Shown here: in pieces, positions 4,280 to 59,332 of the stretch
Position numbering within the stretch: position 1 is the stretch's first letter
How the letters are laid out: each line of letters starts with the position of its first letter
From: Candidatus Thorarchaeota archaeon
GTDB lineage: Archaea; Asgardarchaeota; Thorarchaeia; Thorarchaeales; Thorarchaeaceae
Assembly: GCA_963726195.1 (NCBI GenBank)
Contig: CAVSBO010000003.1
Span: forward strand, 320,001-384,000
Direction of reading: 5' to 3'
Length of the DNA: 64,000 bases
Program-made: the position numbers and the translations under genes
Notes under the pieces: generated by a model
Told to the model about the DNA's origin: nothing
The model's database searches: none
The model's input: only the letters and a program-made list of their open reading frames with translations

Positions 4280-4350
4280 GGTCTAGCTGACAAATCTAGC
4301 AGGACCGCAGAAGGAGAAGGGCACCCAGTAACGATTCTTGGCCTTGCCTA

Positions 4351-5221: not shown

Positions 5222-5238
5222 CGAATGCACGCCCTCGA
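4351..5238. repeat. Diverged tandem duplication with 444-bp period and nested 84-bp (28-aa) sub-repeat
   Basis: ATGs at 5221 and 4777 in near-identical context; cgctcgctcaatgatga occurs at ~4367 and 4811. Confidence 0.9.
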
Positions 5239-5414
5239 GATATATCGATGGCATCTATCCGCATAAACATATCGTCCGAAGGCATCTGTGTAATGACTTA
5301 GCTCTTGGAAAGCAGCCTGGTGTGACAGACATCGTGGAGGGGCTTGAGCCATCCTCCAACTTAACAACACCGTCCGCCGGGAGCGAGCGCAAGAGCGCAA
5401 CACTCCAAAACGCT

Positions 5415-6311: not shown

Positions 6312-6327
6312 CTTATTGTGATCACTC

Positions 6328-14119: not shown

Positions 14120-14397
14120 TCCGAATAACCACCTCGGTCTAGAATCTCGCAATAAATGCAAGACAACCAGCGGCGCTTCAACAAAGGAAGCCGCCTCGTC
14201 GGTCGCTCTAGACTCTTGTTTTCGCCTTGTTTATCACCAAAGAGGCCTGCGACTACGCTATTATACCTTCGGTCTGGTCCGTATTTCAGGCGCAATGCTT
14301 TTCAAATCGGGCCATGTTAGCATTCTACACTTGGTCTGATGCTGTTTCATGTAAGCACACCCTCATTGTAGCATGACCAGTAGACGAGGAAGCGTCC

Positions 14398-32265: not shown

Positions 32266-35200
32266 TTAGTCTAGTTCAATGCCCAAGCTATCGAGAAGGG
32301 CCTTGAAATCTGCCTTTGACAAGGACTTTGCTTGGTCGAGTATGATGTCTACTTCCTCAGGAGCCATTCCTTTCTTCTGAAGCTTCGCCTTCAGCTCTTC
32401 CATGTCGCTGGGCTTGGCTCCGAATAACTCCTTCTCAGGCTTGACGCTAGGCTTCCCAGCAGCCTTCTCTGCAAGGGCCTCAGCTCGTCGTGCTTGCTCC
32501 TGAGCTATGACTTCATGGAGGAAGCCAGGCCTCTCGCTCGGCTTCATCCTTGCCAGGTCAGAACGGAAAGCATCGATTTCTTGAGCACCCAAGCCGGTTA
32601 TCGAAGCTAGTTGATCTAGAAGGTCGTTGACCTCAGGAACTACAATCACAATTGGTTCTGGAGCGATATCCTCTGCTTGCTTCTCAATTCCAATGGGTTT
32701 CAATTCCTTGTTCACGATTGCGAGGACGCTATCCGCTCGGGACCGCACCACGGCTCGCCGTGGAACCTTGCCGCGTCGGAGAGAACTAATCATGCGATTC
32801 ATGACACGCACGAGTTTCGGCACGCTCCAGACTCTGACATAGAGCCCGACGAGAGCTGCACCTAGGATCAGAGCGGCTCCGCCAATGAGACTTACCCTCT
32901 GATAGAACACCTGCTCCTGTGAAGTGTCGGACCTGACAGCAAACACGAGTACTTTCGTAGCATATTGCCCTCTTGAGAACTGGATGGTGATATGGAATGT
33001 GCCACCAGCGTTGATTCCAAAGTAGAGCAAGTATGTGCCGTTGTCAAGTTGCCTAGTCTGGTCAGCAAAGAAAGTGATGTTGCCGCCCTCCGTCGTGACA
33101 AGTGGTACCACGCCTGTAATTACTGCACCGTGATCCACGTCATAGTATGTTACAGGTATGACTATTGTCGCTCCGGGCACAGTTCGGATCGTAGTGTTTG
33201 CTGTCCTGAGCTCTGTGTTCACCTGTCTTACTGTGAGGTCAAGGGTAAACGATTCGATTTGGTAGATTGATGTGGCAAATGCTATCTCAATATGGTAGAG
33301 ATTCAGAGGCAGAGTTCCAGCAATGTCGAGTCTGTAGCTACCGTTTGTCATCTGGACTAGCGGAATCTCGCCAATTCCTGACCAGTATGATATTCCGTTG
33401 AGCCCTGAAACCGTCTGGTTGTTCAGCGTATTCACGACAGTAAACACAACTGAGGCGGTGTCATTCACAGGAAGAGATAGGGAGCTTGTCCCACGTATCT
33501 CAGCTGGCATCGCAAGTATTATGATGCTGACTTGAGTTGTCGCGGATGCATAGTTGCTCTTGGCAAGAGCAACACTCATTTGATATAGTCGAGGATTCAG
33601 CAAGGAGAGCCTAGTTGCGATGTAATAGCTTCCGTTGCCGAGGTCAGTAACGTTCGCAACACCACCTGCCCAACCTGCAGAGACTGTGGCGCCTACTATC
33701 TGCGCACCTGTGATGCTATCATTGTAGTAGACTGTGAACCAAATGATATCGCCATAGTACCCAACTCGTGTCAGCGGCTTGCCATTGGCATCAGTCGGCC
33801 TAGGCAGTATGTTCGCTATCACTGTTCTGGTAGCAGTGGCATAGCCGAGCTTGGTGGCGGTAACTCGCAGGTACAATGTCTCTGCTGCGAGCGAGGTCGT
33901 GTTGAATGTCACCCAATAGGACCCGTTTAGAAGGTCCCTGAATTGGCCTGTCAGGTTTCCAAGCACGTACGTTACATTGGCTCCTGTGAGCAAGCCGCCA
34001 TGGTATGTGTCGTTGTATGTAACCGAGATTGTAAGGTTGCTCCGATACACGACTGTGACTGAGGTTGCGCCGCCCGCCATTCGCAAGGCAGTGGGAACTG
34101 GTGCGACATTAATCCCAATGGAGAGGTCTAGGAATATGTGGTCAGTCTCGAAAGCTCTCAATGTGGCAGGATAGCTGCCTATGTTGAGACCGCTGAGGTT
34201 GACACTCGCCACATAGAAGCCAGGCGTTCCGTTGTAGACTAGTGCGCGAATCTTGTTGTTCCATTCTAATGTAACATTGTTGGCAATCACTGGCCTATTG
34301 GTAACCGTGTCGTTCAGGTAGACCCAGAACGAACCAGTAGTTCCGGTGACTATATTGTATGTAGACTGTGAGGGCATAATCTGACCGTTTGCCCTAAACA
34401 CGATTAGCACGAAAGACTGAGTGCGTGTCTGATAGTACTGCCTCGAAACGGACACCTGCGGCTGATGGTAACCGTAGTGTTTAGCTGATGTATCAAGGTT
34501 CAGCTGATATGTTCCGTTACCCAAGTCTGAGAACACATATAGAGTTCCGTTCCACAGGAGAGTAGCGTTCATGTGCGGAACATAAGTCGAGTACAGTGTC
34601 TCGCGAACACTCATTTGAATTAGAACGTGCTGCCCCCAATCCGCATAGTACGTACTCTGTCCGAGCAGTATGATTACTGTCGTCGACCCTGGCTGAGCTG
34701 TGACATTGATCGCGGATGTCTGATACAATGCCTTGACTGCTGTAATCGTAAACGGGTAGGCTTGAGCTACTAGTGCTGAGGTATTGAGTGTGATTCTGTA
34801 CACTCCACCTCCTATCTCTGCCCATGCGTAGCTTCGACCGTACCTACTCTGCCAATCACAACTTATGACAGCTCCTGCCAACGGCAGATTGTGGTCGAAG
34901 TCGGAGAGTGTGACGTTGAGAATGAACGGACTACCTACTGGCCGTGTCCCAGCAGGCGGCAAAGACGAAAGCAGAGAGGTCTGGACTAGGCGTATAACAG
35001 CAGGGACATTGTTTGTGGTTCTGTTCGCGTAGTGGTTCGCTGCACCCGTCTTGTAAACTGTGAGATTGAAGTAGAAGGTCCCAATCGATCCAAATTGCAC
35101 CGAAGGGACGAGTATGCGGTAAGCACCTCCTCCAAGCGAAACGAAGTAGTAGGTCAGAGATGTCTTGTTGCTGGATGTGAGAGTTGCTGAAGCACCTGCA

Positions 35201-38200
35201 ATGCCGGCTCCGGTTGTGTAGTCTGTATAATCAAAGTTCAGAGTAATATTGTCGAAGTACGGTGTATCAGGTACAAGTGGGAACAGTATCTGTGTGGGGC
35301 GCTCGACAGTTGTTGCGTACGTCGTTGTGCTCTTGGGAGCATAGTATGGGACACTAGTGCTCCTGTTGATAGACAACTGAATGGTCATGCTAGTGACAAG
35401 GTTCACTGCGTCAAGAAATGTCGAGTTAAATCTAATCTCATAATAGGCACCGTAGTTCGTCAACACGTAGTTGGCCGAAGTGAGTACATAAGCACCGCCC
35501 AGAACAATGGTGATGTTGTTCTTTGTGATGGCTATGTTCGAGCTTGTGATGAAGTCGATGTATTCAAACCTGAAGACCACAAACTCCTTGAATGGAGTGT
35601 CGCCGGGTGTCTGCGTCATAAGTATCTGAGTAGCTCTCTGTGTGACCTGTGAATTGACGTTTCTTGTCGAGAGCATATAGAACGGTGAACCTGCGCGAGA
35701 GACAGTCACACCAATAACATACTTGCCTATATGCCCAAGAGCCACGCTACTAATTCTGATTTGGTAGACCCCTTGGCCTTGATACGTTACCCAGTAGTTG
35801 CTGTTCTGCACAAGTGACGACGTGGAGTTAGAGCAAGCCAACGAGACCGAAGCGCCAGATATGCCTGTACTAGTTGTGTCATCAGTGTAAGTCACTGTGA
35901 ATGTCACATTCTCAAGGTAGGCTGTCGGATCCGGAGTGGCGTATCCAAGCTGTGTCGAACGCTTAAGGACTGACAAGCTGACGAAATCGACTGCATTGCT
36001 CACATAATTCGAACCCGTGTAGACTATGGTAGCGTTGAGCACGAACGTACCGTCTGACACAAAGGCTGAAGTGTCGAGAGTCAGCTGGTAGCCACCGTTT
36101 CCAAGGAAGAGTACCGTGTAGTGTCCCGAGAGAGTGGCATTGAGTGTCAGGGTTCCGGTCATTCCAGATGAGGATCCGGATATTAGGTCGGTGTACAGGA
36201 ACTGGATTATCACACTGTTTGCGTACTGAGGCGGAGTGAATGGCTGGTTTGTGAGCTGACTGCTTCTCAGAATCACTGTGACAACGAAGGCTTTGCTGCC
36301 CACCGATGCATAGAAGGGCGCGCCTGTCCAAGTCATGTTGAGATGCAGAGTGTAGGAGCCGATGCCTCCGAGACTGTGCGTATCAATGGTGATGTTGAAC
36401 AATCGTTGAGCAGAAATGTAGGTCAATGAATAGGAGACCGTGCCTTCATTCAGCCGCACCGTGAGATTGCTAGGAGAATTGGGAATGCGACTTGCAGTCA
36501 ACGTATCATAGAAGCTAAATGTGAAAACTGCGTATTGCCCGTATGGAGTAGATTGGATGGGGTTCGGATCGATATAGGTTGATCTCTGAATGGCCGTGAG
36601 GGTCACGGTCATCGTGTTGTTTTCATAGAGAGGCGACTGACCACTCTTCCACAGGAAGTCAAGCTGGAATACGAACGATCCGCACTTCCCAAAGAGGGAG
36701 CTATTCAATGCAAAGCTGTAGACGCCGCCACCCAGTCCCACCACCTTGAATTTGGCTTGTGTGACACTGTGACCACCGGTGAGGGCTGTTATCTTGAGAT
36801 GTACGTAGCCAGATGTGTTGGAAATACCTGTTCCATTCAAGACATCCCAGTAGACTGCTGTGAATGTCAGATTCTGAAGATAATAGGTGGCGCTCGGTGC
36901 TTGCTGAAGGTACAGATCGGTGGTCGTGCCCGAAACTCTCACTGCCGTACTAATGGATTTGCCATAGTAGGTAACGACAGGTCCCGTCCAGCTAACTGCA
37001 ATCGTGAGATTCTTCCAGCCAATTGAGCCCCACTGGCGCGCCATCGCTGTTATGTTGTAGTGACCCACGCCTAGGGTGTCAGCCACCATTGTGAACTTGA
37101 AGTTGGTGACGCCCGGCGCCGACACGACAATGTGGACATAGCCGCTTCCGTTAGAGATGCCGACCCCGAGGTCAGTATCCTGATAATAGACTAGGATATC
37201 TATCAGCTGGCCGTACGCGGTCTGGCTCAATGGTTGGTCCAGCGTAAATAGTGTGTTGTGAGAACGCACCTGAACGCCCACAGTAAAGGTGTGATTCTGA
37301 TAGAGGTAACGTTCAACCTTGAACAAAACGGTGTAATAGTAGTTGGGCGCTGTAAGAGGGTCACTCAACATAGTGAACACGGTGATCCTGTACACACCAG
37401 GGGAAACTTCTGCAACTGTGTAGTTTGTGTCTCCGTGCGAATGGAATGTTGTCCAATTGCAGCTAATTGAACTGCTCGAACCAGTGACAGGGTTGTTATT
37501 CTCGTCGGTCCAAGTTAGGTTAAAGTTAGCTGACTGCCCAACAGGTATTGAGAGCTGATTTGCGGAGTAAGCAATGTTGTTGTACACGCTTCTTACGTCA
37601 ACAAACATTACCATCATCTGAGTCAGGACGAATTGTGCTTTCGCTGTAATGTTCAGAGCGTTCCTGCCAATTCCATACCCGGTGGTGTTTAGCGTCATCT
37701 TATAGAAACCCAAGCCCAACGAAGTGACCTGATACGGCTTGGTCCAGTTGCACTTGATAACGGCGCCCGTGATGCCAGTGCCGTTCACGTTCTTGAAGCT
37801 CACAGTGAACGATTGATCATAGCCAATCGGGCCCGAAATGCCTGGATATTGAGGAGACTGTAACGTTGCCGCGTAGTTCACGTTCATGTAGAGAGTCGCC
37901 GTGGCATTATCATAGCGTGAACAAGTCCACTTCAGCTGCATTGTGTAACGCCCAGCATGCGTCAGACCTGAAGTGTCGATGACCTTCGTGTATTGTCCGT
38001 TTCCGCTGTCGTCGAAAGTAACAGTGCCAAGCGTCCAGGTCAACGTGAGCGTTCCACCCGCAACAACTACCTTGCTGTCGGTGTCGTTTGCCTTTATCAC
38101 GACTAGTACAAGAGCGCCGTAAGTTGCATTAGTAACCCAAGTAGTCTGAGCATCTGATGGGTACAGAATTGAGATTTTGGAAGAATGAGTTACTGTGAAA

Positions 38201-40038
38201 GGTCTCTTGAAGAATCCAGTGGACTGCCATTTGCCGCTGCTGCCCACGTCGTTCGTACTGGCTTGAATCATCCAAGCACCTGCAGTCGCGTTGGTACCTG
38301 CGAAAGTAAGGGACTTGCTGGTTGCATAGCCTGTGGCATTAGCAGTAGCATTGCCACTGTACCACTTTGATCCAGATGGGCCGTAGATAGTGATATTGAC
38401 TACCGAATTTGCGTAAGAGGCTCCAACATAGGCGCGGACTTTTGTGACGTTTCCGGCTCTGAGATTGACGGTCGCCTTCCAAGTAGAGTCCTTAGGATCC
38501 AACATCTGGATGTTCGTAATCATGTTCGCAGACTGGCTGAGGATTCGCCAGTAGCCATATCTGCCTGCGTCGGTAGCATCCTTGTATGCAGACACGTTCA
38601 CGTAACCTTGACCGATTTGTCCACCGTTCCATCCCGATGGATATGTGAGATTTGTCGAAGGAGCGAGTGGTGCGCCGACGAAGTAGACACGTCTGTTTGA
38701 TGGAATAGTCTCGTTGAAGAAGTACTTGTTGGAGTATCCTGTGGGGATATTCGCATAGAAGAAAGTTGTGTAGTAAGCCTGAGAGCCGTTCTGAATAGCG
38801 AAGCTCTGACCGTAATCAGTGGGACTAATATCAAACACGGTAAGCGTGTTAAGTCGTCGCGCGTAGAAGTTGATTGCGACATCGAACTGCACGATTATGT
38901 TAAGGTTTGGAGCAGGAGTCGCAGGCACTGGAGCCCAAGTGAAGTTCATCCGTACGGGATTGGTTCTCCACGGGGTTCCGGGAGATTGTGTGATTGTGCC
39001 CGCTCCATAACCTGTGCTGTTGACCACAGCAACACCGTTCATCTTGAGATTAACATTGGTAGGAGCAGCTTTTGTCACCAGATACAACTGAATGTTGTCG
39101 AGCTTGGCATGAGGCCTAATATTCGGGGTGTAGCCTACGGCCACCTTGCTCAACAATCCTGCTTCAAGCCACACATTTTGTACGGAAGGCAGATTGAACG
39201 TGTATGCAGGTATGAAAACCATACCGCTGTTATACCAAGTCCGCTCCGCACCGATTGAATCGAATACAATCTCCCAGATAGCTGTGCTCTGGCTTCTCAC
39301 ATACAGCGAGAACGATCCAGTCATGCCATAGTGAGTGTTGTCTCTGGTTTCTGCCCAGTAGTCCAGAGTCAAGCCGGCCCACACAACTGTTCCACGCGTA
39401 ATTGGCACGGTCTGGTTCACCCAAGCCTTGTCGCCTGAATCGTAGTTGTAGACTGGGCCGCCTCCGGTCGAGTTGATCTCCAACTCAACCGCTCCATTGC
39501 CCGTTCCGTGGCCTGTCGCGTTGTATGTACAATACGGATTGCTGCTGCCGCCCGCCCCTGTTGTACCGAGAGTCCAGTTACCACTACCGCACTTTGTGCT
39601 GAAATCGTAGTTCTTGAACCACGTGCGATTCTCAGTCAGACTTGAAACACTGACAACAGCCTTGTATGCTTCCCAGCCGCTTCCAGTGGGTACACTCACA
39701 CTTGAATTAGCCGTGGTACCGTTCGAGAAGTGCTTCACAGTCACGCTTGAATAGCTGTTAGTGCTATTCCCGAACTCGCCCGTATTGCTGCCAGTGAACG
39801 GCGCAGAGTATCCGTCCCATTCAGTCCATCCTTGATCAGTCAAGACAAACCTGTGCAACTCCTCGTCAGGGCCTATTGGAGGAATGCCGTTGACATTCGG
39901 ACCAACCTGTGTCGCTGATCCTGTCTGGCCACCGCCCAACGGCGCAGCAAGCATTCCAAGTGCGCCCGGCGAGAACATCTGAATCATTATGGCTATCACA
40001 AACAGTGCAAACGGCACAAGCTTCTTCATACGGCTCAT
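32266..40038 (-). CDS. Giant (2590 aa) type I membrane surface glycoprotein with tandem Ig-like repeats and helical cytoplasmic tail
   Basis: Signal peptide; ~100-aa beta-rich repeats with G.G.Y motif; many NxS/T sequons; TM helix; ~180-aa charged tail. Confidence 0.88.
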   Translation of the reverse strand: MSRMKKLVPFALFVIAIMIQMFSPGALGMLAAPLGGGQTGSATQVGPNVNGIPPIGPDEELHRFVLTDQGWTEWDGYSAPFTGSNTGEFGNSTNSYSSVTVKHFSNGTTANSSVSVPTGSGWEAYKAVVSVSSLTENRTWFKNYDFSTKCGSGNWTLGTTGAGGSSNPYCTYNATGHGTGNGAVELEINSTGGGPVYNYDSGDKAWVNQTVPITRGTVVWAGLTLDYWAETRDNTHYGMTGSFSLYVRSQSTAIWEIVFDSIGAERTWYNSGMVFIPAYTFNLPSVQNVWLEAGLLSKVAVGYTPNIRPHAKLDNIQLYLVTKAAPTNVNLKMNGVAVVNSTGYGAGTITQSPGTPWRTNPVRMNFTWAPVPATPAPNLNIIVQFDVAINFYARRLNTLTVFDISPTDYGQSFAIQNGSQAYYTTFFYANIPTGYSNKYFFNETIPSNRRVYFVGAPLAPSTNLTYPSGWNGGQIGQGYVNVSAYKDATDAGRYGYWRILSQSANMITNIQMLDPKDSTWKATVNLRAGNVTKVRAYVGASYANSVVNITIYGPSGSKWYSGNATANATGYATSKSLTFAGTNATAGAWMIQASTNDVGSSGKWQSTGFFKRPFTVTHSSKISILYPSDAQTTWVTNATYGALVLVVIKANDTDSKVVVAGGTLTLTWTLGTVTFDDSGNGQYTKVIDTSGLTHAGRYTMQLKWTCSRYDNATATLYMNVNYAATLQSPQYPGISGPIGYDQSFTVSFKNVNGTGITGAVIKCNWTKPYQVTSLGLGFYKMTLNTTGYGIGRNALNITAKAQFVLTQMMVMFVDVRSVYNNIAYSANQLSIPVGQSANFNLTWTDENNNPVTGSSSSISCNWTTFHSHGDTNYTVAEVSPGVYRITVFTMLSDPLTAPNYYYTVLFKVERYLYQNHTFTVGVQVRSHNTLFTLDQPLSQTAYGQLIDILVYYQDTDLGVGISNGSGYVHIVVSAPGVTNFKFTMVADTLGVGHYNITAMARQWGSIGWKNLTIAVSWTGPVVTYYGKSISTAVRVSGTTTDLYLQQAPSATYYLQNLTFTAVYWDVLNGTGISNTSGYVHLKITALTGGHSVTQAKFKVVGLGGGVYSFALNSSLFGKCGSFVFQLDFLWKSGQSPLYENNTMTVTLTAIQRSTYIDPNPIQSTPYGQYAVFTFSFYDTLTASRIPNSPSNLTVRLNEGTVSYSLTYISAQRLFNITIDTHSLGGIGSYTLHLNMTWTGAPFYASVGSKAFVVTVILRSSQLTNQPFTPPQYANSVIIQFLYTDLISGSSSGMTGTLTLNATLSGHYTVLFLGNGGYQLTLDTSAFVSDGTFVLNATIVYTGSNYVSNAVDFVSLSVLKRSTQLGYATPDPTAYLENVTFTVTYTDDTTSTGISGASVSLACSNSTSSLVQNSNYWVTYQGQGVYQIRISSVALGHIGKYVIGVTVSRAGSPFYMLSTRNVNSQVTQRATQILMTQTPGDTPFKEFVVFRFEYIDFITSSNIAITKNNITIVLGGAYVLTSANYVLTNYGAYYEIRFNSTFLDAVNLVTSMTIQLSINRSTSVPYYAPKSTTTYATTVERPTQILFPLVPDTPYFDNITLNFDYTDYTTGAGIAGASATLTSSNKTSLTYYFVSLGGGAYRILVPSVQFGSIGTFYFNLTVYKTGAANHYANRTTNNVPAVIRLVQTSLLSSLPPAGTRPVGSPFILNVTLSDFDHNLPLAGAVISCDWQSRYGRSYAWAEIGGGVYRITLNTSALVAQAYPFTITAVKALYQTSAINVTAQPGSTTVIILLGQSTYYADWGQHVLIQMSVRETLYSTYVPHMNATLLWNGTLYVFSDLGNGTYQLNLDTSAKHYGYHQPQVSVSRQYYQTRTQSFVLIVFRANGQIMPSQSTYNIVTGTTGSFWVYLNDTVTNRPVIANNVTLEWNNKIRALVYNGTPGFYVASVNLSGLNIGSYPATLRAFETDHIFLDLSIGINVAPVPTALRMAGGATSVTVVYRSNLTISVTYNDTYHGGLLTGANVTYVLGNLTGQFRDLLNGSYWVTFNTTSLAAETLYLRVTATKLGYATATRTVIANILPRPTDANGKPLTRVGYYGDIIWFTVYYNDSITGAQIVGATVSAGWAGGVANVTDLGNGSYYIATRLSLLNPRLYQMSVALAKSNYASATTQVSIIILAMPAEIRGTSSLSLPVNDTASVVFTVVNTLNNQTVSGLNGISYWSGIGEIPLVQMTNGSYRLDIAGTLPLNLYHIEIAFATSIYQIESFTLDLTVRQVNTELRTANTTIRTVPGATIVIPVTYYDVDHGAVITGVVPLVTTEGGNITFFADQTRQLDNGTYLLYFGINAGGTFHITIQFSRGQYATKVLVFAVRSDTSQEQVFYQRVSLIGGAALILGAALVGLYVRVWSVPKLVRVMNRMISSLRRGKVPRRAVVRSRADSVLAIVNKELKPIGIEKQAEDIAPEPIVIVVPEVNDLLDQLASITGLGAQEIDAFRSDLARMKPSERPGFLHEVIAQEQARRAEALAEKAAGKPSVKPEKELFGAKPSDMEELKAKLQKKGMAPEEVDIILDQAKSLSKADFKALLDSLGIELD

Positions 40039-43000
40039 AACTTCTCGCCTCCAATCTGATCCAGCAGGGCATCTATCTCTGCTTTTGTGAGATTCCTGGC
40101 TTGTTCAATCATGATATCGGCTTCGCTCTCTTCTATTCCCATCTCGATGAGCCGCTCACGGAGTTGCTTCAGCTCGCTCTCTGTGAGCTTCCTCTCAAGA
40201 TGTTCAACTGCCTTGCCGGGCATCGCTGCCTTCTCAGCTTCGACGAGTTCGCGTGCTCTGCGGGCACGTTCCTGCCTCAGCACTTCACTTACAAATCCGG
40301 CCCTTTCGCTAGGTCTCATCTTTTCTAGGTCCTGTTTCAGCACTGCGACGTCACTTTCGCTGAGGCCAACCACTTGGGCCAGCTCAGTCAGCAGCTTCTC
40401 GACATCAAGGATTGAGATATCTACTGTGGACAGACTGACATCCTCAAGACTCTTTGAAACTCCAATCTCAGCGAGTTCATCGTTCATTAGGTCCAGCAAC
40501 ATCTCTCTTCTGTCCCTGACTGCTGCCGGGCGTGGAATGTCGCCCTTGCTCAGCTTCCCGACCATCGACCTAATTCGTCTCAGCATGGGGGGTACTGACA
40601 GTACCTTGACGTACAAGGCCCCAAACGCGGCGATGAGTATCAACGCCAATGAGCCGTAAGTGAATGCAGTAACCAACATTGCCTGCTGGGGCGAGATGAG
40701 AGAGTAGATCACGGTCGAGTACACAGCTGTGGCATAGTCTGCCTTGTCGAAATGCACCTCCAGACTCAGATCGCCAGCCTGAGGCGCATTGAAAGCGAGC
40801 ACATATGTGCCGTTGCCAAAGTCTAGACTCTGGCTAGACACATAGTAGAGATCCGTCCCGGGTGTGCTGTTGTAAGCACTTGCTATCGGCTTATTGTGGT
40901 CGACATCCCAATAGGTCAGCCGAACCACGAAGGTGTCTCCTGCAAAGATGGTCGTTGGCGGCGGCACAACCACGAGCTGAGTCAGCTATCTTTCTAATTG
41001 TAAGATAAAGAACAAACTCTGCGTGACTGTAGTTGCCTCTGGAGAACTGAATGTGAACCACATACGGCGTGTTTCTCACTTCGAGTCGAGCGATTCCCGA
41101 CTCAATCGCTCCAAATTCATAGGACCCATTGCCAAGATTAGTCAGGGATGCGACACCAAACTCCCAAACTGCTGTGGCAGTAGCATCAGTCAGTAGGTGA
41201 TTGTTGAGCGTGTCGTTGAATCGGAAAAGCTGCCTGTAGTCGTCGCCTACCGGTACCGAGACTGTCTGCGTGCCCATGACTGCAGTCGGAATGGGCCTCA
41301 CGATGAGCTTCACTACGGTGAAGGCATAGTCGTATCGTGACCTATGCATGGAGATGTAGACATCGTGGCTGACAGCTCCTGCAGTCAGCAGCCTTGTATC
41401 TATGACCAAGGAGTAGTTGCCGTTCTTCAGATCAGTAACGGTTCCTCCAAACGATTCGAGGGTGAACTGACCTGTTCCATTCACAATCGGCTGGTTGTTG
41501 TGAGAATCCCAGTAGGCAAACAAGAACGTTACATTCCTGCCGTAGTAGCCTTCCTGCAGTGGACTAGACAAGACCAAGATAGTTGTGGGAACTTGGGTAA
41601 TTGTAACAGTGAGCTGGATTGAAGATGGAGAGTAACCAGTCTTAACGCCGGATACTGTCAGCACCCAATCACGAATGTCGCTTGTGCCCGTGGGAACGCT
41701 AGCTGAGTAGTACCCTCCACCAATGTCAGAAAGATTACCCACATGAGCTCCCAAGCTGTCAGCTTAGCATGCCACCAGTCACTGATTCGTTCAAGGCTGT
41801 ATTGTTCAGGTACACTGTGACGTTCAAATGGTCTCCTGACACGATCGTGTAGACCGTGTGGCCCAGGTAAGCCTTGAGTTCCGTCGGGATTTCTGTGATT
41901 TCAATTGTCACCTGGAAACTCACTGTCGCGTAGTTGTCGGATGATGCAACGACAAGGATTTGGTGAGTACCTACTGGAGCTCCGTTGACAACAGACTCGG
42001 CAACGTACATTGAGCCATTCCATGTCAGTATTCCCGAACCTCCGACCCAGCCGTACGTTAGATGACCAAACCTGATCGGAGTGCTATTGGACTGGATGAG
42101 GTACCGAGCAGTAATAGTAAGACCGTGCCCGTTGACAGTGATTGTGGGGTTAATCCCACCAGACGTCGTTGCTCCGACTTTGGCGATTCTAATCTGAAAG
42201 CCCTGAGAGCGGGTTTCATAGTTCGTAAGAATGAATGAAACCGTCATCGTATACTCGCCGGAAACGTACTGCCCGGTGAGCACAGTGCATCGGTATCTCC
42301 CGCCACCAATACCAGACATAACGTAAGTGTGAGAAGAGAGAGTTAGATTGACGCTTGCTCCGGATATGGGAGTCCCTGTCCTAAAGTCGGTAATGTTCAC
42401 TTCAATGATGACGGTATCACCCCACGTTGGAGCAACAGGGGTCGTTTGCAGAACGATGCTCACAGGCGTGGGAGATAGAACAATGTCAGCGATGATAGTC
42501 TGGTTCACGTAAAGGTACTTCGAAGCGCTGATAGCAAAACTGTACAGCCCGGCATTCAGACTTGCAGTCGTTATGCTAAGCCTGTACACTCCATTGCCCA
42601 TGAAAGTGATAGTCGCACTAGTTGAGTATCGAAGCGTCCAATTGGTACTGACAGAGGCACCGTTTATGCCGGCACCCGTCGAGATCGGCCTGAATGTGAT
42701 ATTCCCCACAACGGTGTCGCCCAAGTAATGGAGAGAACCGATTGGGAGATCAAATGAGAGAACTGTGGAAACCGGGTTGACCGCTACGTTGAATGCTATG
42801 CCAGTTACGTTCTGATAGTACGGCAGGCCAGTCCAAGTCAGGTTGGCCAGGAAGTAGTACCTTCCTAGCGATGGCAGGAGAGTTGTGTTGACACTCACTA
42901 GGTAGGTGCCATCGCCCATGCTGATTCCCCAACCCTGCACGGAAGTCTTGTTCAAACACTTGAATTTCAGGACGGCGCCAGCTATCCCTGTGCCCTTGAG

Positions 43001-46000
43001 GTAGTCTGAATACTTTATCACCGCGGTTATGTTGTAATAGTAGTACGCAGGAGGAGCAGAGATGACGCTTGCTTGGGTGTATCGACCAGTGATGGTAACC
43101 TGAGTCGTGGCTGTCGAATTCGAGTAGTATGGAACGACGTTGCCCCAGAATAAGGTCAATCCTATTGGATGGTTAGTGACCAATGATGATCCTATGAGGG
43201 TGGAGTTGAATGAAATCGTGTACACTCCATTGCTTCCTGTCAGAGAGTAGCTTGCAGAACCAATGGGAGTGCCTGAACCATGAGTAAGGATTAGAACTGA
43301 CTTTGTCAATGTGATTGGTGTGCCTGACAAGCCATCGGTCGCAGTGATTTCAAAGGTCACGTACTCTAGGTATGCAGTATTGAGTGGAGACCTCGATACA
43401 GTGAGGCTCGCGGGTCTTCTTGAAACCTCAATACTCACCGATCGAACACGTTGCATATAAAACGGATTTCCTGTATAGTTGGCAGTAACGACTATCGAGT
43501 ACGGTCCGAAGTTGCCCAGAGCAACTGTCGAGATCCGGATTCTGTAGTAGCCATCGGTAGCATTGTAGTATACCCAGTAGTTACCTCCTTTGGCAAGCGG
43601 GTATGATGAATTCCCGCAGCTCGCGTAGATGTTTGCGCCCGGTATCGCCACACCTGTTGTGTCGTCACTATATCTCACCATGATCGTGGCATTCGTCAAA
43701 TAGGGAGCGAGGTCAGGTGGCAGGCTGGTCAACTGAGTACGTCTTTGGATTAACGTTAGGTAGAAGAAGTCAGTAGCATCCAAGCAGTATCTTGCGCCGT
43801 TGTAATGTATGCTCGCATTGACTCTGAAGACACCGAGAGATAGAAAGGTGGTCGTATTGAGAGTCAACGTGTACGTGCCGTCATTATTGTCCAGTATCGT
43901 GTAGTGACCAGATAGCGATGAATCAAGGGTCAGCGTACTACCCTTCATGCCGGCAGTCGTGCCATCATCATCATCCCTGTATGTGAACACGAGAATCAGA
44001 TTGTCTTTGTACTGAATAGGGGCGTACGAGCCGTGTGATAGGTCGGTGTTTCTGTATCTCACTGTTATGGGCACAGGAATGTGAGTCTGGTTCTGGTAGA
44101 ACGGCTTTCCAGCCCATATTACGTTGAGATGGAATGTGTGCGTGCCAGGAGTCCAAGAATTAGTATTCAGTCGAATCTTGAAGACACCAGTTGCATTTCC
44201 AAGATAGTATACCGTGTATGAAATGGGCTCGTCCAGCGTAATAGTGAGCATACTTGTCTTTAGTATCGGATTGCCCGTGATAGAATCTCTATAGACAAGA
44301 GTGAGATTCACGAGTGTGTCATATGGAGTTACGGGTATTGGAGTCCAGTCCGCAGCAGTGAGACGAGAAGTGGTGTATACAGTTACGAGCAGAGTCTTGT
44401 TGTCATATTGTGGCAACTGTCCCTTGGTCCAGTTCAGGAAAATCCTCAACTGACAGCCGATGAGCCCGCTAAGATAGGCTTGTACTGAATACGATACGGT
44501 ACTCACCAGGCCTGCTGATAGGACTAACCTCCGTGATTGTCATTACACTCTGTGTCAGAGTCTGACCTGGAGTCAATACAGAGATGTAGATCTTTACGTT
44601 CCACTTGTATGGGCCGGTCCCGTTTGTGATACCTGTCGCGTTGGATACATCAAAATAGATTACTGTGAAGTTGGCATTTTCGCCATACGGAGTAATGACA
44701 GGGCTTTGGCCAATGTATAGGTCAGTAGGAGACGATGTAATGCTTGCACTAGTGCTGATGACCTTGTCATAGTACTTCGTAGTCGGGCCTGTCCAGTTTG
44801 CGTATATGACAAGAGGCTCTGACCCAATTGTGCCCCACTGGTCAGCACGGATTATGATCACGTAATACCCAGGCTGGGTCCCATTGACTACTTGATACTT
44901 GAGTCCCGGCAAGGTTGAGCTTGTCACGCGTATCTTGACGTAGTAGCCGACCGTGGAGCCATTCTGAATACCCACCATGAGGTCAGAATCGAAATATGAC
45001 ACGTTGATGTAGACACGGCCAGTGTACGGGGTCCGGCTAATCGCGTTCAGAAGACTGAATGATGTCAGGTGAGTTCTCAGAACAACTGTTACAACGAAGG
45101 TGTGGTTCTGAGCTCCGTACTTTAAGACGTTGAAAACGACAGCGTACGAACGCAAAGCATCTGAATCCTTCGAGAAAAGCGTGACTTGGTAGACTCCCGG
45201 AGTTCCGGTTGTTGTGACTGTGTAGTTCTGGTCGCCTTTGACGTGTATGCTAGACCAGTTGCAGCTGATTGCGCTTGCAGCACCTGTAATAGGAGTCCCA
45301 TGGTCCGTGTCTGTGTACGTGATTGTTAGAGATGCGCTATAGCCCACGGGGACGGAAAGCAGACTTGCAGACGGGATAGCTGAGGTATGGAGATCCCTTA
45401 CTTGCAGGGAGAGAACAATCGACTTTGTTGCAAAGTAGTCCCTCCTTGCGGTGATGTTTATGTGGTAAGTTGCGAGTGGAGCCGCACTAGTGCGCAAAGT
45501 CAAATCATAGTAGCCGGGTTTTCCTGCCTCTGGGGTGACACTATAGGTATCCTTGGTCCAGTTGCACGAGACCAAAGCATTCTGAATTGCGTTGCTCTTC
45601 TGGTCTGTGTAAGACACATGGAAAGTAGCGTTATACCCTTTCGGCACATCGACACCCGGAGCGTCAGAGGAGAACAGATTACTCGTGTATATCACATTAA
45701 TTGTGAATGTCTTCGAAATCGAATCATAGTAGGTCTTGGACCATAGTAGATTCACAATGAATTGGCCATTGGATGACAAGAGGCTTGTATTGAGTGTCAC
45801 GCTGTATTCTCCGGTCCCTAAGTCAGCAACTTGTCCGGAGCCAGCCGCCCAAGAATAGGTCATGGCTCCCCCGGGGAGCATGACTCCTCTGTCCGAGTCA
45901 TTCACTCTGAATTGCAGAAGCACCAGATCGCCGTACGTTGCATTGTATGTCCACGAAGTGACAGAAGATGAGGGGTACTTAACGGCCATCTGGGTCGAGT

Positions 46001-48692
46001 GATTAACGGTGAACCCTCTGCGGTAGAATCCTACGTTTCTCACAGCTCCTCCGCCAGATACAGAGTCAAACACGTAGGCCTGGACTTCCCAAGACCCGAC
46101 CGTAGCGTTCGAGGATGCGAACGTAACGTACCCGGTGGTTGCGTAACCAGAGCTATTGATCGTCGCTTGAAGTGTCTTCCAGAGGTTGCCACTAGAATCA
46201 TACACGCTGAAGTTGACTTTATTGCCAGAATAGGAAGTGTTAGAGAATGACGCAAGGAATCTTGTTTGTTCGTTTGCTCTGAAGGCCTTCGTCGTGACCC
46301 ACTGAGAGGTAAGCGTGTTCCATACCTTAAGGTTCGAAATCATGTTTGGCGAATAGCCCTTCATGTCCCAGAATCCATTCTGGCTTGTCGTCGTGACCTT
46401 GTACACTGAGACATTGACCTTCCCATCGCCAACTTTCCCGTAGGACCATTGAGAGCCGTACGTGAGGTTCGTTGTACGGAAGTTGGGTTGAGATACAAAG
46501 TTGACGTCCCTGTCTTTTGGTATCGAGACGTTGAAGAAGTAGTATGACGAGTATCCTCCGGGCACGGCGGGATAATGGTTTGTCTCCCATTGAACTAACG
46601 AAGCATTTTGCACCACGAAGTTGTCGCCGGTCGTGAACTTTGCGGTATCGTTCACCGTAAGCACATTATACCTTCGAGCCCATACTGTTACGTAAGTGTT
46701 AATCGCGATTGAGATTGTCATGTCCGGGTTAGGAGGATTTGGAATAGGCGTCCAAGAGAAATTCCCATAGGCACTGCCAGACTGCCAAGGGATGGCAGGC
46801 GAGTATGTAGCGGTTCCTCGACCGAAGATAGGTTGTGAGCCATTCATGACATTGCTGACCACTACGCCATCCATCTTGAGATTGATGTTCTGAGGAGTGG
46901 CTTTGGCTTTCATGTATATCAGTAGATTATCTACCCTGCCCTCAGGTCCGATTTCAGGTCTGTACCACTCGCTTTGCGTATCTCGCAGACCTGCCATGAT
47001 TGTTACGTTCGGAAGAGTGATAGAAGACGTGCTTACGGGCAATAGACCCGTGGAGTACCATGTATTTGGAGCGGCTATCGCATCGAATGCCTTGCTCCAC
47101 AAGTAGGTGCCACCCGCATCTGGGTCACCTATTGAGACAAAAAGCTGGAAGAAGCCAGTCATGTATCCACCCCATCCTCGGCAAGATGCATAGTAGTCCA
47201 GCGAGATTCCGAGCCATGTGATTTGGCCTCTGGGAATACTCAGCTTTTGACTGACGAAGGCCTTGGTGCCAGGGTTGTACCAGTAACCGTACAGCCCGCC
47301 TCCTGCATCATGATAGAAACCATTGAGGACGAAATCGGGTGATGGGTTCCCTGCGCCGTGCCCGGTGGCCGACCACGTACTAGCAGGACGGTCTCTTGCG
47401 CTACTCTCGGTCGTATAGATGTAACCCGTGGAATTCACTGCAATTCCATAATTGAAGTGGAAGTTGCCGTTTCCTGAACCATCAGAACCCCATGAGGAGG
47501 TGCCGCCGGTCACATTGTTGTAGGTATAGACTCGATGGTTGCCTGCGTCATCAATGTACACCATGCCAGTCGATGAATAGGCGGCAATCCCTTCGGGTGT
47601 CAGCATTCCTGAACCAATTGTCGTAGCACTGGCCCCAATCTCGGAGAAGCGGCGCACTTGGCTTCCTGAGGTTTGGACCTCGCTCACGAAGACTTGCCTG
47701 CTGACTTGTAGGATTGCTATTCCATGAGGCAGCCCCACACTCGCCCATTGGCCGACGTACGAACCTGTATCGCTAAAGTACTGTACCCTTGAGTTTCCAG
47801 AGTCAACAACATAGGCACGGTAGTTGTAGTTCATGATAGCTATGCCAACCGGACCATGAAACAGCCCATTTCCCTCACCGGTTGAGCCCCATGATCTCTG
47901 ATAGACGCCTCGGGCATTGAAGACCTGAATCCTGTCATTTCCATAGTCTGCCACATACACATAGCCAGTGTTATTTACAGCGATACCCATGGGCCTGTCA
48001 AATTGCCCGGTGCCAGTTCCGTAAGTCCCCCACTTGAACTGGAACACTCCATTGCGATTGAATACTTCGATACGGTTGTTGTAAGTATCCGCGACATAAA
48101 CGAACCCTGTAGAGTTAATTGCGATGCCCCATGGATCGGTGAAATTGCCGTTTTGCGCGCCCCTTGAGCCCCACTGTCTCTGATATACGCCCGCCGAGGT
48201 AAAGACCTGTACCCTGTCATTCCCTGAGAAGTAACCTTCAAGCTGGCCGGTCCCGTAACTCCAGTTTGCGTTCGTGGCATAGCCAGAGTTGCCGACCCAA
48301 GTCCTGTTCTCAGTGACGTCAGTCAAGTTCCCAAGCACTTTGTAACCTTGCCACGCGTTTCCGAGGGGCACGGAGAGGTTTGCGGTCGTTGTCTTCTGAG
48401 TTGACGGGTTATAGATCATGCTACTTCCAGTGAATGTGTCTGTCCGTGTGCCGTATTCTGACACCACGAGCGGCGAACCCACACCAGTCTTCTGGCTTGG
48501 TGCAGCCGACAAGACATACTCGTAGAGTATCTCATCAGGACCAACTTCGATGGTCGTGCCATTTCCAAGGTCGACTATTCTTGAACCTGATTGAGAAGAA
48601 GACACATTCGGCAATAGGGGGTTGATCATAAAACTCCCCAATGTCATCGATGCCATCATGAAAAGCACGACAATGAATCGAGTTGGTCTCAT
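40035..48692 (-). CDS. Giant (~2900 aa) paralogous surface glycoprotein with NHL beta-propeller; three frameshifts
   Basis: Four consecutive ORFs (44469-48725, 41759-44506, 40891-41754, 40035-40973) colinear with the downstream paralog; NHL repeats P.GIA....G.VYVAD..N.RI.VF. Confidence 0.85.
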
Positions 48693-48725
48693 GCACAGGA
48701 CTCCTGTAGTTTGAGAGAGAATCAA

Positions 48726-48756: not shown

Positions 48757-48956
48757 CAAGTATTATGCGCAGATGTGGCTTCAAACAGTTTGTATTAAAA
48801 AGATGGCCGCTAGACACCGTTCCAAATGACGGCGAGTCGTTCGATTAATCGACATGAGCCACGGCAATCACATGACTCGCCTGCATGTTCTCTGCTGGTT
48901 CACTAACACAACGGGAATCTTATTACGCTGAAGTGGTTCGCGCGTTGCGATTCAAG

Positions 48957-51482
48957 ATGGTTGAGCAGCCTGAGAAGTTCTGGAGTGAAAGTGCTGACGA
49001 ACTGATAGCGGCACTGCAAAGCAAGAAGGAAGGACTGAGCACCACCGAGGCTGCCGATCGCTTGGTTAGGTTCGGTCCCAACCGACTCAAGCCCAAGAAG
49101 AGAACTGACTCCTTAGTCCTGCTCGCGAATCAGTTTAGAAGTCCAATAATCATGATTCTGATCTTCTCAGCCATCCTTGCCTTTCTTACAAGCGACGACG
49201 TAGACAGCCTCATCATAGTAATCATAGTTGCCACCAGCGGTGCCCTCGGCTTTTCGCAAGAACGAGCGGCTACCAACGCTGTTCAGCGTCTCTTGTCCAT
49301 GATAACGACAAAGGTGACCGTGCTCAGAGATGGGGCAACAACTGACATTCCCATGGAGAATCTCGTTCCGGGCGACATCACGGTTCTGAATGCTGGTGAT
49401 ATCGTACCAGGAGATTGCAGGCTCCTGGAGTCTAGAGACCTATTCGTCGACGAAGCGACTATGACAGGTGAAACATTTCCTGCCGAGAAAGAGTGCGGTG
49501 ACCTAGCGCCAGATACTTCCTTGGCCCGGCGCACCAACTCTGTCTTTATGGGCACACATGTTGTGAGCGGCAGCGGCACTGCACTAGTGGTGCAGACTGG
49601 CCCTGCGACCGTGTTCGGCAAGCTGGAGGAGAGGCTTAGGGAAGGAGTGCCGGTCACTGAGTTCGAACGCGGCATCAGACGATTCGGGTACCTGTTGAGC
49701 GAGGTGACCATGACCTTCGTGCTCGTGATCTTCGCTCTGAATGTGTACTTTGTACGTCCAGTTCTGGATTCCTTCTTGTTTGCCCTGGCTCTCGCAGTCG
49801 GTATCGTACCGCAGCTCCTGCCCACAATCATAAGCATCAACCTAGCACAGGGAGCCAAGAGGATGGCTAAGAGCAAAGTCATCGTGAAGCAACTGGAAGC
49901 AATTGAGAACTTCGGCAGCATGAGCATCCTCTGCTCCGACAAAACTGGCACAATCACTGAAGGAAAGATTCACCTTCAGGCTGCAGTTGATATGAACGGA
50001 CAAGACAGCAAAGATGTGCTTCTATATGCCTACTTGAACGCACGATATCAGAACGCGTACACAAACCCAATCGATGAGGGCATAATTGCCTCCGTCAATA
50101 TGGACATAGGGGATTACACCAAACTGGACGAGATACCTTACGACTTCATACGGAAGCGTCTGAGCGTTCTTGTGGCGAAGGGCGAGAGTCGATTAATCGT
50201 AACGAAGGGAGCTCTCACAAACATACTCTCAGTCTGCACACGAGTAAAATCAGCACAAGGCAAGGTCATCGACATTGGCGGCTACCTAGATACTATCAAA
50301 CAGGAATATGCAAAGCTCAGCGATCAAGGCTACAGAACACTCGGTGTCTGCTATCGCGAGTTGAAGGGAGTCGACAGAATCACGAAGGATGACGACAAGG
50401 AAATGGTGTTCGCCGGTCTCCTCGTCCTGACCGATCCCCCGAAGGAGGGCATCGTCGAGACACTTGCACAGCTCCGAGAACTCGGGGTCTCTCTGAAGGT
50501 CATCACTGGCGACAACAAGCTCGTAGCAACCAGCATTGGACGCCAAATCGGCATGGAGGACCCTCATGTTGTATCAGGGCCTGAGATTCGCCAGATGAGC
50601 GATGAGGCGCTCGTCAGGAAATCCGCCGAGATTGATATCTTTGCTGAGGTGGAGCCCAATCAGAAGGAGAGAATCATACTTGCGCTCAGGAAACTGGGCC
50701 GCACTGTGGGCTACATGGGCGATGGAATAAACGATGCTGCTGCAATCCATGCAGCTGATGTCGGAATATCCGTTGAAGGGGCAGTTGATGTGGCGAAGGA
50801 TGCCGCCCAAATCGTGCTTCTAGAGAAAGACCTCAACGTTCTTGCGGATGGAATAAGGGCGGGGAGAAAGACATTCGCCAATACAATGAAGTACATCTTC
50901 ATGACGACAAGCGCCAACTTCGGCAACATCACCAGCATGGCAGTCGCGTCCCTAATCCTGACCTTCCTACCACTGTGGCCAAAGCAGATACTTGGGCTCA
51001 ACCTAATCACAGACCTTCCTGCAACAACAATGGGCACAGATAGGGTCGATCCGGAACTCGTGATAAAACCCAGACGCTGGAACCTTGGATTCTTGACGAA
51101 GTTCATGGTTGTTTTCGGCTTGCAGAGTTCGCTGATGGACATGGTCACATTTGCTGTGCTACTTCTCGTGCTCAACTCTACTCCAGACCAGTTCAGGAAC
51201 ACATGGTTCTTGGTCTCAGCTGTAACCGAATTGGTTACGCTCCTAATCGTAAGGACGCGGAAGCCTTTCTTGTTGAGCAGACCTAGCGGCTCCCTGATTG
51301 GTGCAACATTAGTTGTTCTGTTCGTGACACTTGTCTTGCCCTATTCTCCACTCGCAGGCCTATTCGATCTTCTTCCCTTGAGCGCTTTTTACCTGGAAGT
51401 GGTCGCTGCCATTGTTCTCCTGTACACCGTGGCTCTGGAACTAACGAAGCACGTCTTCTATGCAAAGGTTCGCGAGCAATAA
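48957..51482 (+). CDS. mgtA: Mg2+-translocating P-type ATPase
   Basis: TGE, AVGIVPQLLP, DKTGT, NPID, PYDFIRKR, GDGIND, SANFGN. Confidence 0.9.
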   Translation: MVEQPEKFWSESADELIAALQSKKEGLSTTEAADRLVRFGPNRLKPKKRTDSLVLLANQFRSPIIMILIFSAILAFLTSDDVDSLIIVIIVATSGALGFSQERAATNAVQRLLSMITTKVTVLRDGATTDIPMENLVPGDITVLNAGDIVPGDCRLLESRDLFVDEATMTGETFPAEKECGDLAPDTSLARRTNSVFMGTHVVSGSGTALVVQTGPATVFGKLEERLREGVPVTEFERGIRRFGYLLSEVTMTFVLVIFALNVYFVRPVLDSFLFALALAVGIVPQLLPTIISINLAQGAKRMAKSKVIVKQLEAIENFGSMSILCSDKTGTITEGKIHLQAAVDMNGQDSKDVLLYAYLNARYQNAYTNPIDEGIIASVNMDIGDYTKLDEIPYDFIRKRLSVLVAKGESRLIVTKGALTNILSVCTRVKSAQGKVIDIGGYLDTIKQEYAKLSDQGYRTLGVCYRELKGVDRITKDDDKEMVFAGLLVLTDPPKEGIVETLAQLRELGVSLKVITGDNKLVATSIGRQIGMEDPHVVSGPEIRQMSDEALVRKSAEIDIFAEVEPNQKERIILALRKLGRTVGYMGDGINDAAAIHAADVGISVEGAVDVAKDAAQIVLLEKDLNVLADGIRAGRKTFANTMKYIFMTTSANFGNITSMAVASLILTFLPLWPKQILGLNLITDLPATTMGTDRVDPELVIKPRRWNLGFLTKFMVVFGLQSSLMDMVTFAVLLLVLNSTPDQFRNTWFLVSAVTELVTLLIVRTRKPFLLSRPSGSLIGATLVVLFVTLVLPYSPLAGLFDLLPLSAFYLEVVAAIVLLYTVALELTKHVFYAKVREQ

Positions 51483-53703: not shown

Positions 53704-53908
53704 GAGCTCCGCATCTCCTCTTCTGATATTAACAACTCGGTGACAGCATGCTGGCAATCATCCCCGAGAAGATGCCTATCCGTGTCCTGCACAGCTCGCT
53801 CTCAGTTCTACCCTGTCAGGACCAAACATTCCCCACACGAACCATTATAAACGGCATAGAACCTGCCCGACGACAGTCCAAAGACAGTCGGGTCTAGAGG
53901 CTAACGGA

Positions 53909-58367: not shown

Positions 58368-59124
58368 TCAAGATTCCACACCTAGTTTCTTGGCTCTTTC
58401 GAACGCGGTCTCAGCTTCACCGGCGCGACCCTGCTTAGACAAGGTCTCTCCAAGACCTTTCCATGCGGCACCGTTGTCAGGCTCGAACTTGATGGCCGTC
58501 CTGTATGCTTCTTCAGCCCTTGAAGCCGCATCGGACAACAACAGCATTCGCCCGAGATCGTACCACGTTTTTGCATCGTCAGGCATGTGCGTCATGGCGG
58601 TGTTGAATGCTCGTTCACTTTGTGAAGCCTTGCCGGCGTTGTAGAGAATTGCTCCAAGACTGTACCACGAAATCGGATCATTAGGTTTCTGCGCTATGGC
58701 TGTCCTGAATGCCACTTCCGCCCTCGAAGTTTGACCAGACCAGAGCAGAACAGTCCCGAGTCTGCGTTGAGCGCCCGCATCGCTAGGCTTCAACTTGATT
58801 GCCGTTCTAATTGCCTGTTCAGCTTCTTTCAGACGATTCGACTCGTAGAGCAGATCAGCCATGTCAGCTCCACGCTTCAAAACTGCCATGTTTATGCTTG
58901 ATTGCTGTCCTGTATGCTTCCTCAGCCTCGTCAAAGCGCCCAGCTTTGTTGAGCACAAGCCCGAGATTGCACCAGGCTTCAGCGAAGTCAGGCTTTTGCG
59001 CTACGGCGGCTCTGAATGCCTCTTCGGCTTCCTTCGCTTGGCCCGACCCACTCAGTTTGAGTCCAAGTTCAAGCAATTGTGTGGGTGAGTTAGGCTCCGT
59101 TCTAGCACTCTTCTCCTTTGACAT
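58368..59124 (-). CDS. Tetratricopeptide-repeat protein (frameshift near 58880)
   Basis: Repeated 34-aa units W..LG..L...G...EAE.A.R.A....P. Confidence 0.85.
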
Positions 59125-59332
59125 GCCTTTGACCCCTCTAATCCATCTAATAGAACGATTGGTGTGTACCAAAGTTCCGGGTGAAAAATGACCATTGCAG
59201 CTCATCCACGTGCCGAGCATGGGACACAGAATGTGACTGAACTAGGTCCGCACCTGTTGAAGCTGCATAAGGCAACAACTAATAGCAGCGCATTCCTGAG
59301 CCAGACTCAGCTCGAAGAAGGCGGACCCTCGC

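Follow-up and report, generated by a model that had tools for sequence, protein, structure and literature searches.

The stretch of DNA analysed here (the window) comprises 64,000 nucleotides of a Candidatus Thorarchaeota genome (assembly GCA_963726195.1, contig CAVSBO010000003.1, positions 320,001 to 384,000), and contains on its minus strand two adjoining giant genes, an upstream one (g2) and a downstream one (g1). Together they form a conserved two-gene Thorarchaeota operon that encodes two collinear paralogous type-I surface proteins rich in N-glycosylation sequons. Each protein consists of a signal peptide, a variable head, a rod of 17 non-interchangeable repeats that resemble immunoglobulin (Ig) and PKD domains, a single transmembrane helix, and a helical module of around 185 amino acids (aa) that is predicted to lie inside the cell. 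The positions of the two genes and of their parts are given in Table 1.

Table 1. Features of the two giant genes, with positions in the window (ORF, open reading frame; HMM, hidden Markov model; AF2, AlphaFold2)
Feature	Position	Strand	Description and basis
g1, downstream giant gene	32266..40038	minus	one intact ORF, 2590 aa
g1 signal peptide, aa 1 to ~32	39943..40038	minus	basic n-region MSRMKK, then hydrophobic aa 4-32 (Kyte-Doolittle scan)
g1 head, aa 33-639 (~600 aa)	38122..39942	minus	no recognised family
g1 stalk, aa 640-2378	32905..38121	minus	17 tandem repeats of 97-113 aa, sequon-rich; iterated HMM and repeat alignment
g1 transmembrane helix, aa 2383-2405	32824..32892	minus	hydropathy scan; helix 2-22 of the AF2 model
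g1 tail (predicted cytoplasmic), 185 aa	32269..32823	minus	two tail alignments; AF2 model
Overlap of g2 with g1	40035..40038	minus	ATGA stop/start; last g2 ORF ends ...TTATGA
g2, upstream giant gene	40035..48692	minus	2886 codons by length; four ORFs via three single-base shifts
g2 ORF pieces	44469-48725, 41759-44506, 40891-41754, 40035-40973	minus	frames 2>3>1>2 (translation table 11)
NHL-repeat beta-propeller, ~278 aa	47415..48248	minus	inserted into the head of g2, lacking in g1; Pfam NHL
g2 transmembrane helix	40599..40667	minus	
g2 tail (predicted cytoplasmic), 187 aa	40038..40598	minus	42% identity to the g1 tail; 74% to the tail of the G333 ortholog
Frameshift 1 in g2, near 44472	44469..44483	minus	one extra base, ACAAGC[C]TAT
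Frameshift 2 in g2, near 41760	41755..41767	minus	one extra base, CTAAGC[T]GAC
Frameshift 3 in g2, near 40985	40977..40989	minus	one extra base, ATAGCT[G]ACT

Orthologs of the intact g1 protein fall into more than 70 clusters of nearly constant length (2552–2600 aa), all of them labelled 'hypothetical protein [Candidatus Thorarchaeota archaeon]'. Searches of its head against Pfam and against PDB sequences returned no match, and a language-model search gave weak leads only (Ig-like, carbohydrate-binding module and CARDB clusters at 0.76–0.81). The repeats of the stalk are position-specific, with 16–31% identity to the reference repeat and a mean column identity of 29%. Their profile matches the PKD domain of KIAA0319L with E=1.1e-4, a weak fold assignment, and homologs of the giants show sub-threshold or precomputed matches to the Ig-like families CarboxypepD_reg, MG2 and Invasin_D3. 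In the ectodomain there are 77 N-x-S/T sequons, compared with 33.7 ± 5.2 in shuffled sequences, and in the tail there are none; from this count the ectodomain is predicted to be N-glycosylated. Charged residues make up only 10% of the ectodomain, which is enriched in Thr, Ser and Asn. Beyond the transmembrane helix, eight of the first 25 residues are Lys or Arg, and 33% of the residues of the entire tail are charged. Because a signal peptide of the cleavable type and a sequon-rich ectodomain of low charge are thus combined with a basic, charged and sequon-free tail, the sequence supports g1 being a type-I membrane protein, with the tail predicted inside the cell.

As sequenced, g2 is divided among four ORFs. 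When the 2590-aa g1 protein was compared with the upstream region by tblastn, one collinear alignment was obtained that crosses frames 2, 3, 1 and 2, and the region is thus a full-length paralog cut by three +1 shifts. Their register was set by the intact 2888-aa ortholog in genome G333 (contig 72), which belongs to the same genus; relative to this ortholog each break is exactly +1 nucleotide (nt), and no residue is lost. All four pieces are 57–65% identical to the G333 protein, and the intact g1 shares 60% identity with the ortholog that it has there. The g1 and g2 proteins are collinear over their whole length, and the gap in their alignment is filled by the NHL propeller of the g2 head (PF01436, E=4.4e-24; score 83.7 bits, cut-off 20).

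An earlier note on this stretch had described two paralogous genes of about 2900 and 2590 aa that overlap by 4 bp, each with a signal peptide, an N-terminal head, an array of ~100-aa repeats dense in sequons, one transmembrane helix, and one of two homologous tails of ~180 aa. The single downstream frame, the overlap, the paralogy, the hydrophobic N-terminus and lone transmembrane helix, the repeat array, the sequon density and the homology of the tails, which measure 185–187 aa and contain the motifs that the note quoted, are all borne out here. Its upstream gene in a single frame is not, the three +1 shifts having gone unmentioned, and the count of 2886 codons holds only because these shifts sum to 3 nt. 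A head is present in both genes, as was described, but the propeller within that of g2 had been overlooked.

The ordered pair recurs in relatives. In G333 the genes encode 2888 and 2600 aa, in the same order and with the same 4-bp overlap; the metagenomic contig L080 encodes proteins of 2883 and 2626 aa with a 1-bp overlap, and another contig, L079, has the 4-bp overlap and a protein of 2588 aa. Both contigs share the flanks of the window, namely a convergent class-I (TyrRS/TrpRS-type) tRNA synthetase gene and LPG_synthase, PHP and UbiA genes. A search of the family with the g2 head found this type of pair in many genera, with the order always upstream-then-downstream, and in at least 14 further genomes frames of 2601–2916 aa (upstream) and 2583–2636 aa (downstream) lie 7.4–8.7 kb apart. 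The g2 orthologs in other assemblies are all open, and the NHL insert is present in some (2882–2916 aa) and absent from others (2601–2634 aa). In a tree of 45 tails, the pairs of the window, of G333 and of G311, which belongs to the sister family, group in a single clade (SH-aLRT 99), and upstream and downstream orthologs are separated from each other (100 and 97). Two other types of pair, of ~4100–5600 plus 3150–3390 aa and of 3370–6560 plus 3975–4011 aa, form groups of their own in the tree; some of the upstream frames of these types end at contig ends. Heads differ by type, being NHL propellers, one to three Laminin-G/ConA-like domains (Laminin_G_3), DUF2341 or unrecognised, and the tail is the same.

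The genome has three tails of this kind, 35–42% identical in pairwise comparison. In that of g1, a basic amphipathic juxtamembrane helix (SVPxxLRxIxxxIxxL, then KGKxPxP; in short SVPxxLR...KGKxPxP) is followed by a helical unit with the invariant motif KMKxSE...F..EV..QE, a linker, and a terminal three-helix unit. Across 84 tails, 11 columns are invariant and 18 nearly so. The AF2 model had a mean confidence (pLDDT) of 91.2 and a predicted template-modelling score (pTM) of 0.50 when 84 sequences were used, compared with a pLDDT of 66.7 when three were used. The model contains the transmembrane helix, the amphipathic helix, a helix at 52–67 and an extended conserved segment, ESIxVxVPE; three helices follow at 88–145, with the invariant residues M116, S119, F124, V128, Q131 and E132, and then come the variable linker and the terminal unit at 161–202 (helices 161–173, 178–188 and 193–202).

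No match to the tail was found in Pfam, NCBIfam or PDB sequences, Foldseek, run with the model of the whole tail, gave no hit in the PDB at E<=0.001, and a language-model search returned no usable hit. The best VIA-align score, Z 7.5 over 62 residues, concerns generic helices and is below the level that is meaningful for helical models with this tool; TM-scores in the ESM Atlas were <0.3. When the 84 tails were scanned against Pfam at E<=1, the sole recurrent match was a sub-threshold one of RecX_HTH1 to the terminal unit (25 of 84 tails, best E 0.0027). Fold matches of this unit are generic three-helix ones only (affibody, TM ~0.5; FlhF, Z 4.9), and neither these proteins nor the tail turned up in full-text literature searches. 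The tail represents a domain family not described before.

Two other descriptions of the tail were considered and set aside. A UBA/CUE-like nature of the terminal unit has no sequence support, neither UBA nor CUE being among the sequence-model matches, and an internal duplication was not adopted: hhalign paired 20 columns of units 1 and 2 with a probability of 60%, and the register differs from the one proposed. The terminal unit itself, of ~45 aa (LSxxELEELRxxLxxxGxPxxEIDxIxxQAKxLPxxL), forms tandem arrays of up to four copies in some tails or fragments (P0008, P0013, P0041, P0063, P0067, P0096, P0099 and P0100), and two copies stand behind a fragment of undecaprenyl-diphosphate synthase (UppS) in P0132. 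Because of these tandem copies and the occurrence behind UppS, it behaves as a small mobile domain.

A survey of the tail by HMM, which the earlier note had called for, defined its range. A profile of the three tails was run without prefilter against 1.84 billion representative proteins, and 159 of them matched at E<=1e-3 (90 at E<=1e-30), with varied heads. Nearly all of these carry the match at their very C-terminal end and are up to 5543 aa long, or are fragments of such proteins. Those homologs that have names are called 'hypothetical protein', except for one 'carboxypeptidase-like regulatory domain-containing protein'; their source is Candidatus Thorarchaeota, and a few bear the label Sifarchaeia or Promethearchaeota. 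The search for the full tail (E<1e-50) covered 400 genomes of the phylum and found it in 80 of the 85 genomes of the window's own family and in the single genome of the sister family, with 1–11 matches per genome. Other Asgard families gave tail matches of E 1e-6 to 1e-17 only, and these weaker matches are real but diverged. One such family has giants with a transmembrane helix and the juxtamembrane motif, and in these the first helical unit can still be recognised; in two further families only the transmembrane helix and the motif are kept, followed by different charged helical tails. The tail module was found only in Asgard archaea.

The large surface proteins that share the transmembrane helix and juxtamembrane motif in these families (f14: L030, L031, L035 and L036; f29: L032 and L037; f22: L033) have the cross-family motif [YF]S[VI]Pxx[VI]R[RK]xRxMxKx[IL]xxGxxP. 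In f14 the first helical unit reads LExLEGLGxKEKEELFxQMKKIPxKDRVWF, and the C-terminal repeats differ (LSEEE..VLE.IK.LSEEERE).

On the three points on which the earlier note had staked its reading, the tail proves not to be a well-known domain, its predicted topology is cytoplasmic, and the pairing is conserved within the genus, across many more genera of the family and also in the sister family. The observation is partly confirmed, and the interpretation that the note attached to it is partly supported.

Several other loci were noted. The third tail-bearing giant of the genome, ~4000 aa long, lies outside the window on the minus strand (G000:C3:693129-704822, with its 3' end in L003) and is divided into six ORF pieces by five frame switches. 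It stands without a tandem partner and adjoins a convergent gene of the RadA/Rad51 family; a Rad51 neighbour is likewise found beside a 3147-aa relative on the metagenomic contig L084. A 174-aa stop-to-stop ORF on the minus strand (G000:C3:719392-719913 = L089:2893-3414) encodes one transmembrane helix followed by a juxtamembrane-like segment (VPLDKAISSMIGALDRGK...), a weak match with E=0.0017 within the genome. Its helical C-terminus is different, and it could be a 'tail-only' relative; the AlaX-like gene that adjoins it is frame-split. In the window, a 738-aa ORF on the minus strand (51541-53757), with no Pfam match at E<=0.001, adjoins a P-type cation ATPase gene (48885-51482, plus strand).

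The breaks in g2 follow a pattern that extends beyond this gene. Each lies either at an intact AGCT or at one into which a single base has been inserted. Of the palindromic 4-mers, AGCT shows the strongest enrichment genome-wide in zones where one long ORF gives way to another in a different frame of the same strand (184 occurrences; 126.5 expected), and CAGCT and AGCTG are prominent among the 5-mers of these zones after the removal of Shine-Dalgarno-like words. In the third giant, AGCT is present in four of the five junction zones, and AAG[T]CTGAC in the remaining one. Unrelated genes are broken as well: a PPDK/PEP-synthase gene on the minus strand (window 11338-14230) is spread over two frames, with PPDK_N positions 2–50 in one ORF and positions 133–326 plus the PEP-utilizer domains in the next, and its junction zone (13520-13644) contains AGCT. 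A tetratricopeptide-repeat gene (window 58371-59241, minus strand) is split likewise, and several methyltransferase genes, like the AlaX-like gene, are frame-split elsewhere in the genome. Because the orthologs are intact, and because AGCT stands at the breaks here and in other genes, the sequence indicates that the single-base shifts in g2 are most likely indel errors of the assembly at AGCT (19 contigs, the largest of 916 kb), and not gene decay. They would be systematic indel errors at a probably methylated motif, as is generally familiar from long-read assemblies.

A rich restriction-modification complement could be the cause of such motif-bound errors. The genome has more than ten N6/N4 DNA methyltransferase loci, several of them frame-split, and one degenerate remnant of a 5-methylcytosine (m5C) methylase with five internal stops; positions noted for this complement are C4:214699-215599, C3:904121-904874, C7:120873-121655 and C16:149769-150515. 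A search among these for an AGCT-specific methyltransferase found none assignable to AGCT. Programmed +1 frameshifting was also considered and was rejected: the sites have no common codon register, the motif is also found at -1 shifts and at the breaks of unrelated genes, and the orthologs are unshifted. Since core genes are broken too, the AGCT-linked indels, which seem to affect the genome at large, matter to annotators of this assembly.

What the two proteins do can be proposed from their architecture. That the genes overlap by ATGA and keep their order and lengths suggests that the proteins would be made together and would act side by side; a paired or mixed surface fibril, of perhaps ~50–80 nm as estimated from 17 Ig-like domains, may present ligand-binding heads far from the membrane, the binding of external ligands being suggested by the lectin-like and propeller heads. 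The tail would keep the rod in the membrane and, as its 185 residues with invariant polar motifs suggest, may dock to an intracellular partner or to neighbouring tails. To this combined reading (joint production, paired or mixed rods, ligand-binding heads and a docking tail) we give a probability of roughly one half. The heteromer, the cytoplasmic partners of the tail and the adhesive function put forward in the earlier note are hypotheses. A prediction of the complex of the two soluble tails (g1 aa 24–208 of P0001 and g2 aa 25–210 of P0002, with 84-row alignments) scored 0.00 against a mark of 0.32, which is evidence neither for nor against their contact.

A number of points weigh against the combined reading. 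Contact between the two proteins is proposed from gene order, overlap and co-conservation, adhesion from the types of head, and the fold of the repeats and of the head from weak sequence similarity. Tail units within the genome are limited to the three giants, and no tail partner was found, no cytoplasmic gene being consistently adjacent in any pair type examined. As to the shifts, their density in two of the three giants is ~10 times that found elsewhere in the window, g1 has 44 AGCT sites and no break, and the view that they are artefacts comes from the assembled sequence and not from reads.

The main rival is a purely structural role in the envelope, in which the proteins would form a non-crystalline coat or spacer in place of a surface (S-) layer, with the tail serving only for retention, insertion, sorting or lateral packing, and with neither head ligands nor a cytoplasmic link. 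It is favoured by the near-constant lengths of the proteins (2552–2600 aa in the clusters mentioned above), which together with collinear, non-homogenised repeats suit a ruler or spacer better than a variable adhesin, and by the fact that the transmembrane helix and juxtamembrane motif are the parts most widely kept across Asgard families, on unrelated ectodomains. The heavy load of sequons and the lack of a partner gene in the neighbourhood of the pairs agree with it as well. However, the head types (NHL propeller, Laminin-G/ConA-like lectin) are ones that bind ligands, a folded tail of 185 residues with invariant motifs of surface type (KMKxSE, QE..R) exceeds the needs of an anchor, and several paralogous types per genome (3–11 matches) are found rather than one bulk coat protein; we regard the structural role as possible, on balance somewhat doubtful. 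That g2 is a true pseudogene in this strain, so that only the downstream protein is made and the pair is non-functional here, would account for its four ORFs, for the fragmentation of the third giant and for the density of frameshifts in these two genes. It is nevertheless unlikely: no decay is seen past the three single bases, all pieces are equally close to the ortholog in identity, the AGCT-bound pattern is common to the split core gene for PPDK/PEP synthase, and the g2 orthologs in other assemblies are all intact.

Two further proposals concern the role of the tail. The type-I layout with a folded tail would suit signal-transducing receptors, in which a ligand of the head alters the state of the tail and this is relayed to a cytoplasmic effector, and the invariant Ser of KMKxSE might be a modification site. 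We consider this very improbable, as the tail contains neither an enzymatic domain nor a known signalling one, conformational signals would travel poorly along a rod of 17 repeats, and no kinase or regulator is conserved beside the pairs. It is also rather unlikely, if less so, that the Asgard tail docks to actin and its regulators, to ESCRT or to small GTPases, with the pairs as obligate heterodimeric receptors; if true, receptors would have become coupled to the cytoskeleton across the membrane among the archaeal kin of eukaryotes, by a route separate from that of integrins and cadherins.

No known organisms are more closely related to eukaryotes than the Asgard archaea, which lends interest to the way in which their cells make contact with partners and surfaces. 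The locus defines an unannotated family of paired surface rods of fixed length that carry an Asgard-only folded module on the predicted cytoplasmic side, a layout that is unusual for a prokaryotic surface protein. It offers three experimental handles: a soluble bait of 185 aa, a juxtamembrane motif shared by several Asgard families, and a pair of ectodomains for tests of heterodimerisation.

In architecture only, the pair resembles integrin alpha/beta and the classical cadherins, with a modular sequon-rich ectodomain, a single transmembrane helix, a basic juxtamembrane helix, a conserved tail and two paralogous chains. The tail has no sequence or fold similarity to those receptors that we could find: the g1 tail matches none of the integrin-beta or cadherin cytoplasmic models of Pfam at E<=1, and none of these is among the 25 commonest families matched by the 84 tails. 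Giant Ig-like-repeat adhesins of bacteria, of the SiiE, LapA, Bap and MpAFP type, are similar in their signal-dependent export, in the distal head of a ligand-binding type, and in the long rod of ~100-aa beta-sandwich-like repeats. Such adhesins lack a cytoplasmic domain and are anchored by retention modules of type I secretion systems, by LPXTG motifs or by outer-membrane plugs; in many cases the repeats are nearly identical and vary in number. In contrast, the giants described here are anchored by a transmembrane helix with a folded tail of 185 aa, their repeats are diverged and collinear between the paralogs, and their length is fixed across the family. Transmembrane-anchored archaeal S-layer glycoproteins, such as the haloarchaeal and Sulfolobales-type envelope proteins, are likewise type-I proteins with sequon-rich, predicted N-glycosylated ectodomains and one C-terminal transmembrane helix. 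S-layer proteins either stop at or just past the anchor or have a PGF-CTERM signal for archaeosortase, and no PGF-CTERM-type sorting signal was detected in the giants by NCBIfam or Pfam. They differ from S-layer proteins in that a conserved motif lies past the transmembrane helix, on the predicted cytoplasmic side, followed by two folded helical units, and in that each genome has several paralogous types, arranged in ordered pairs.

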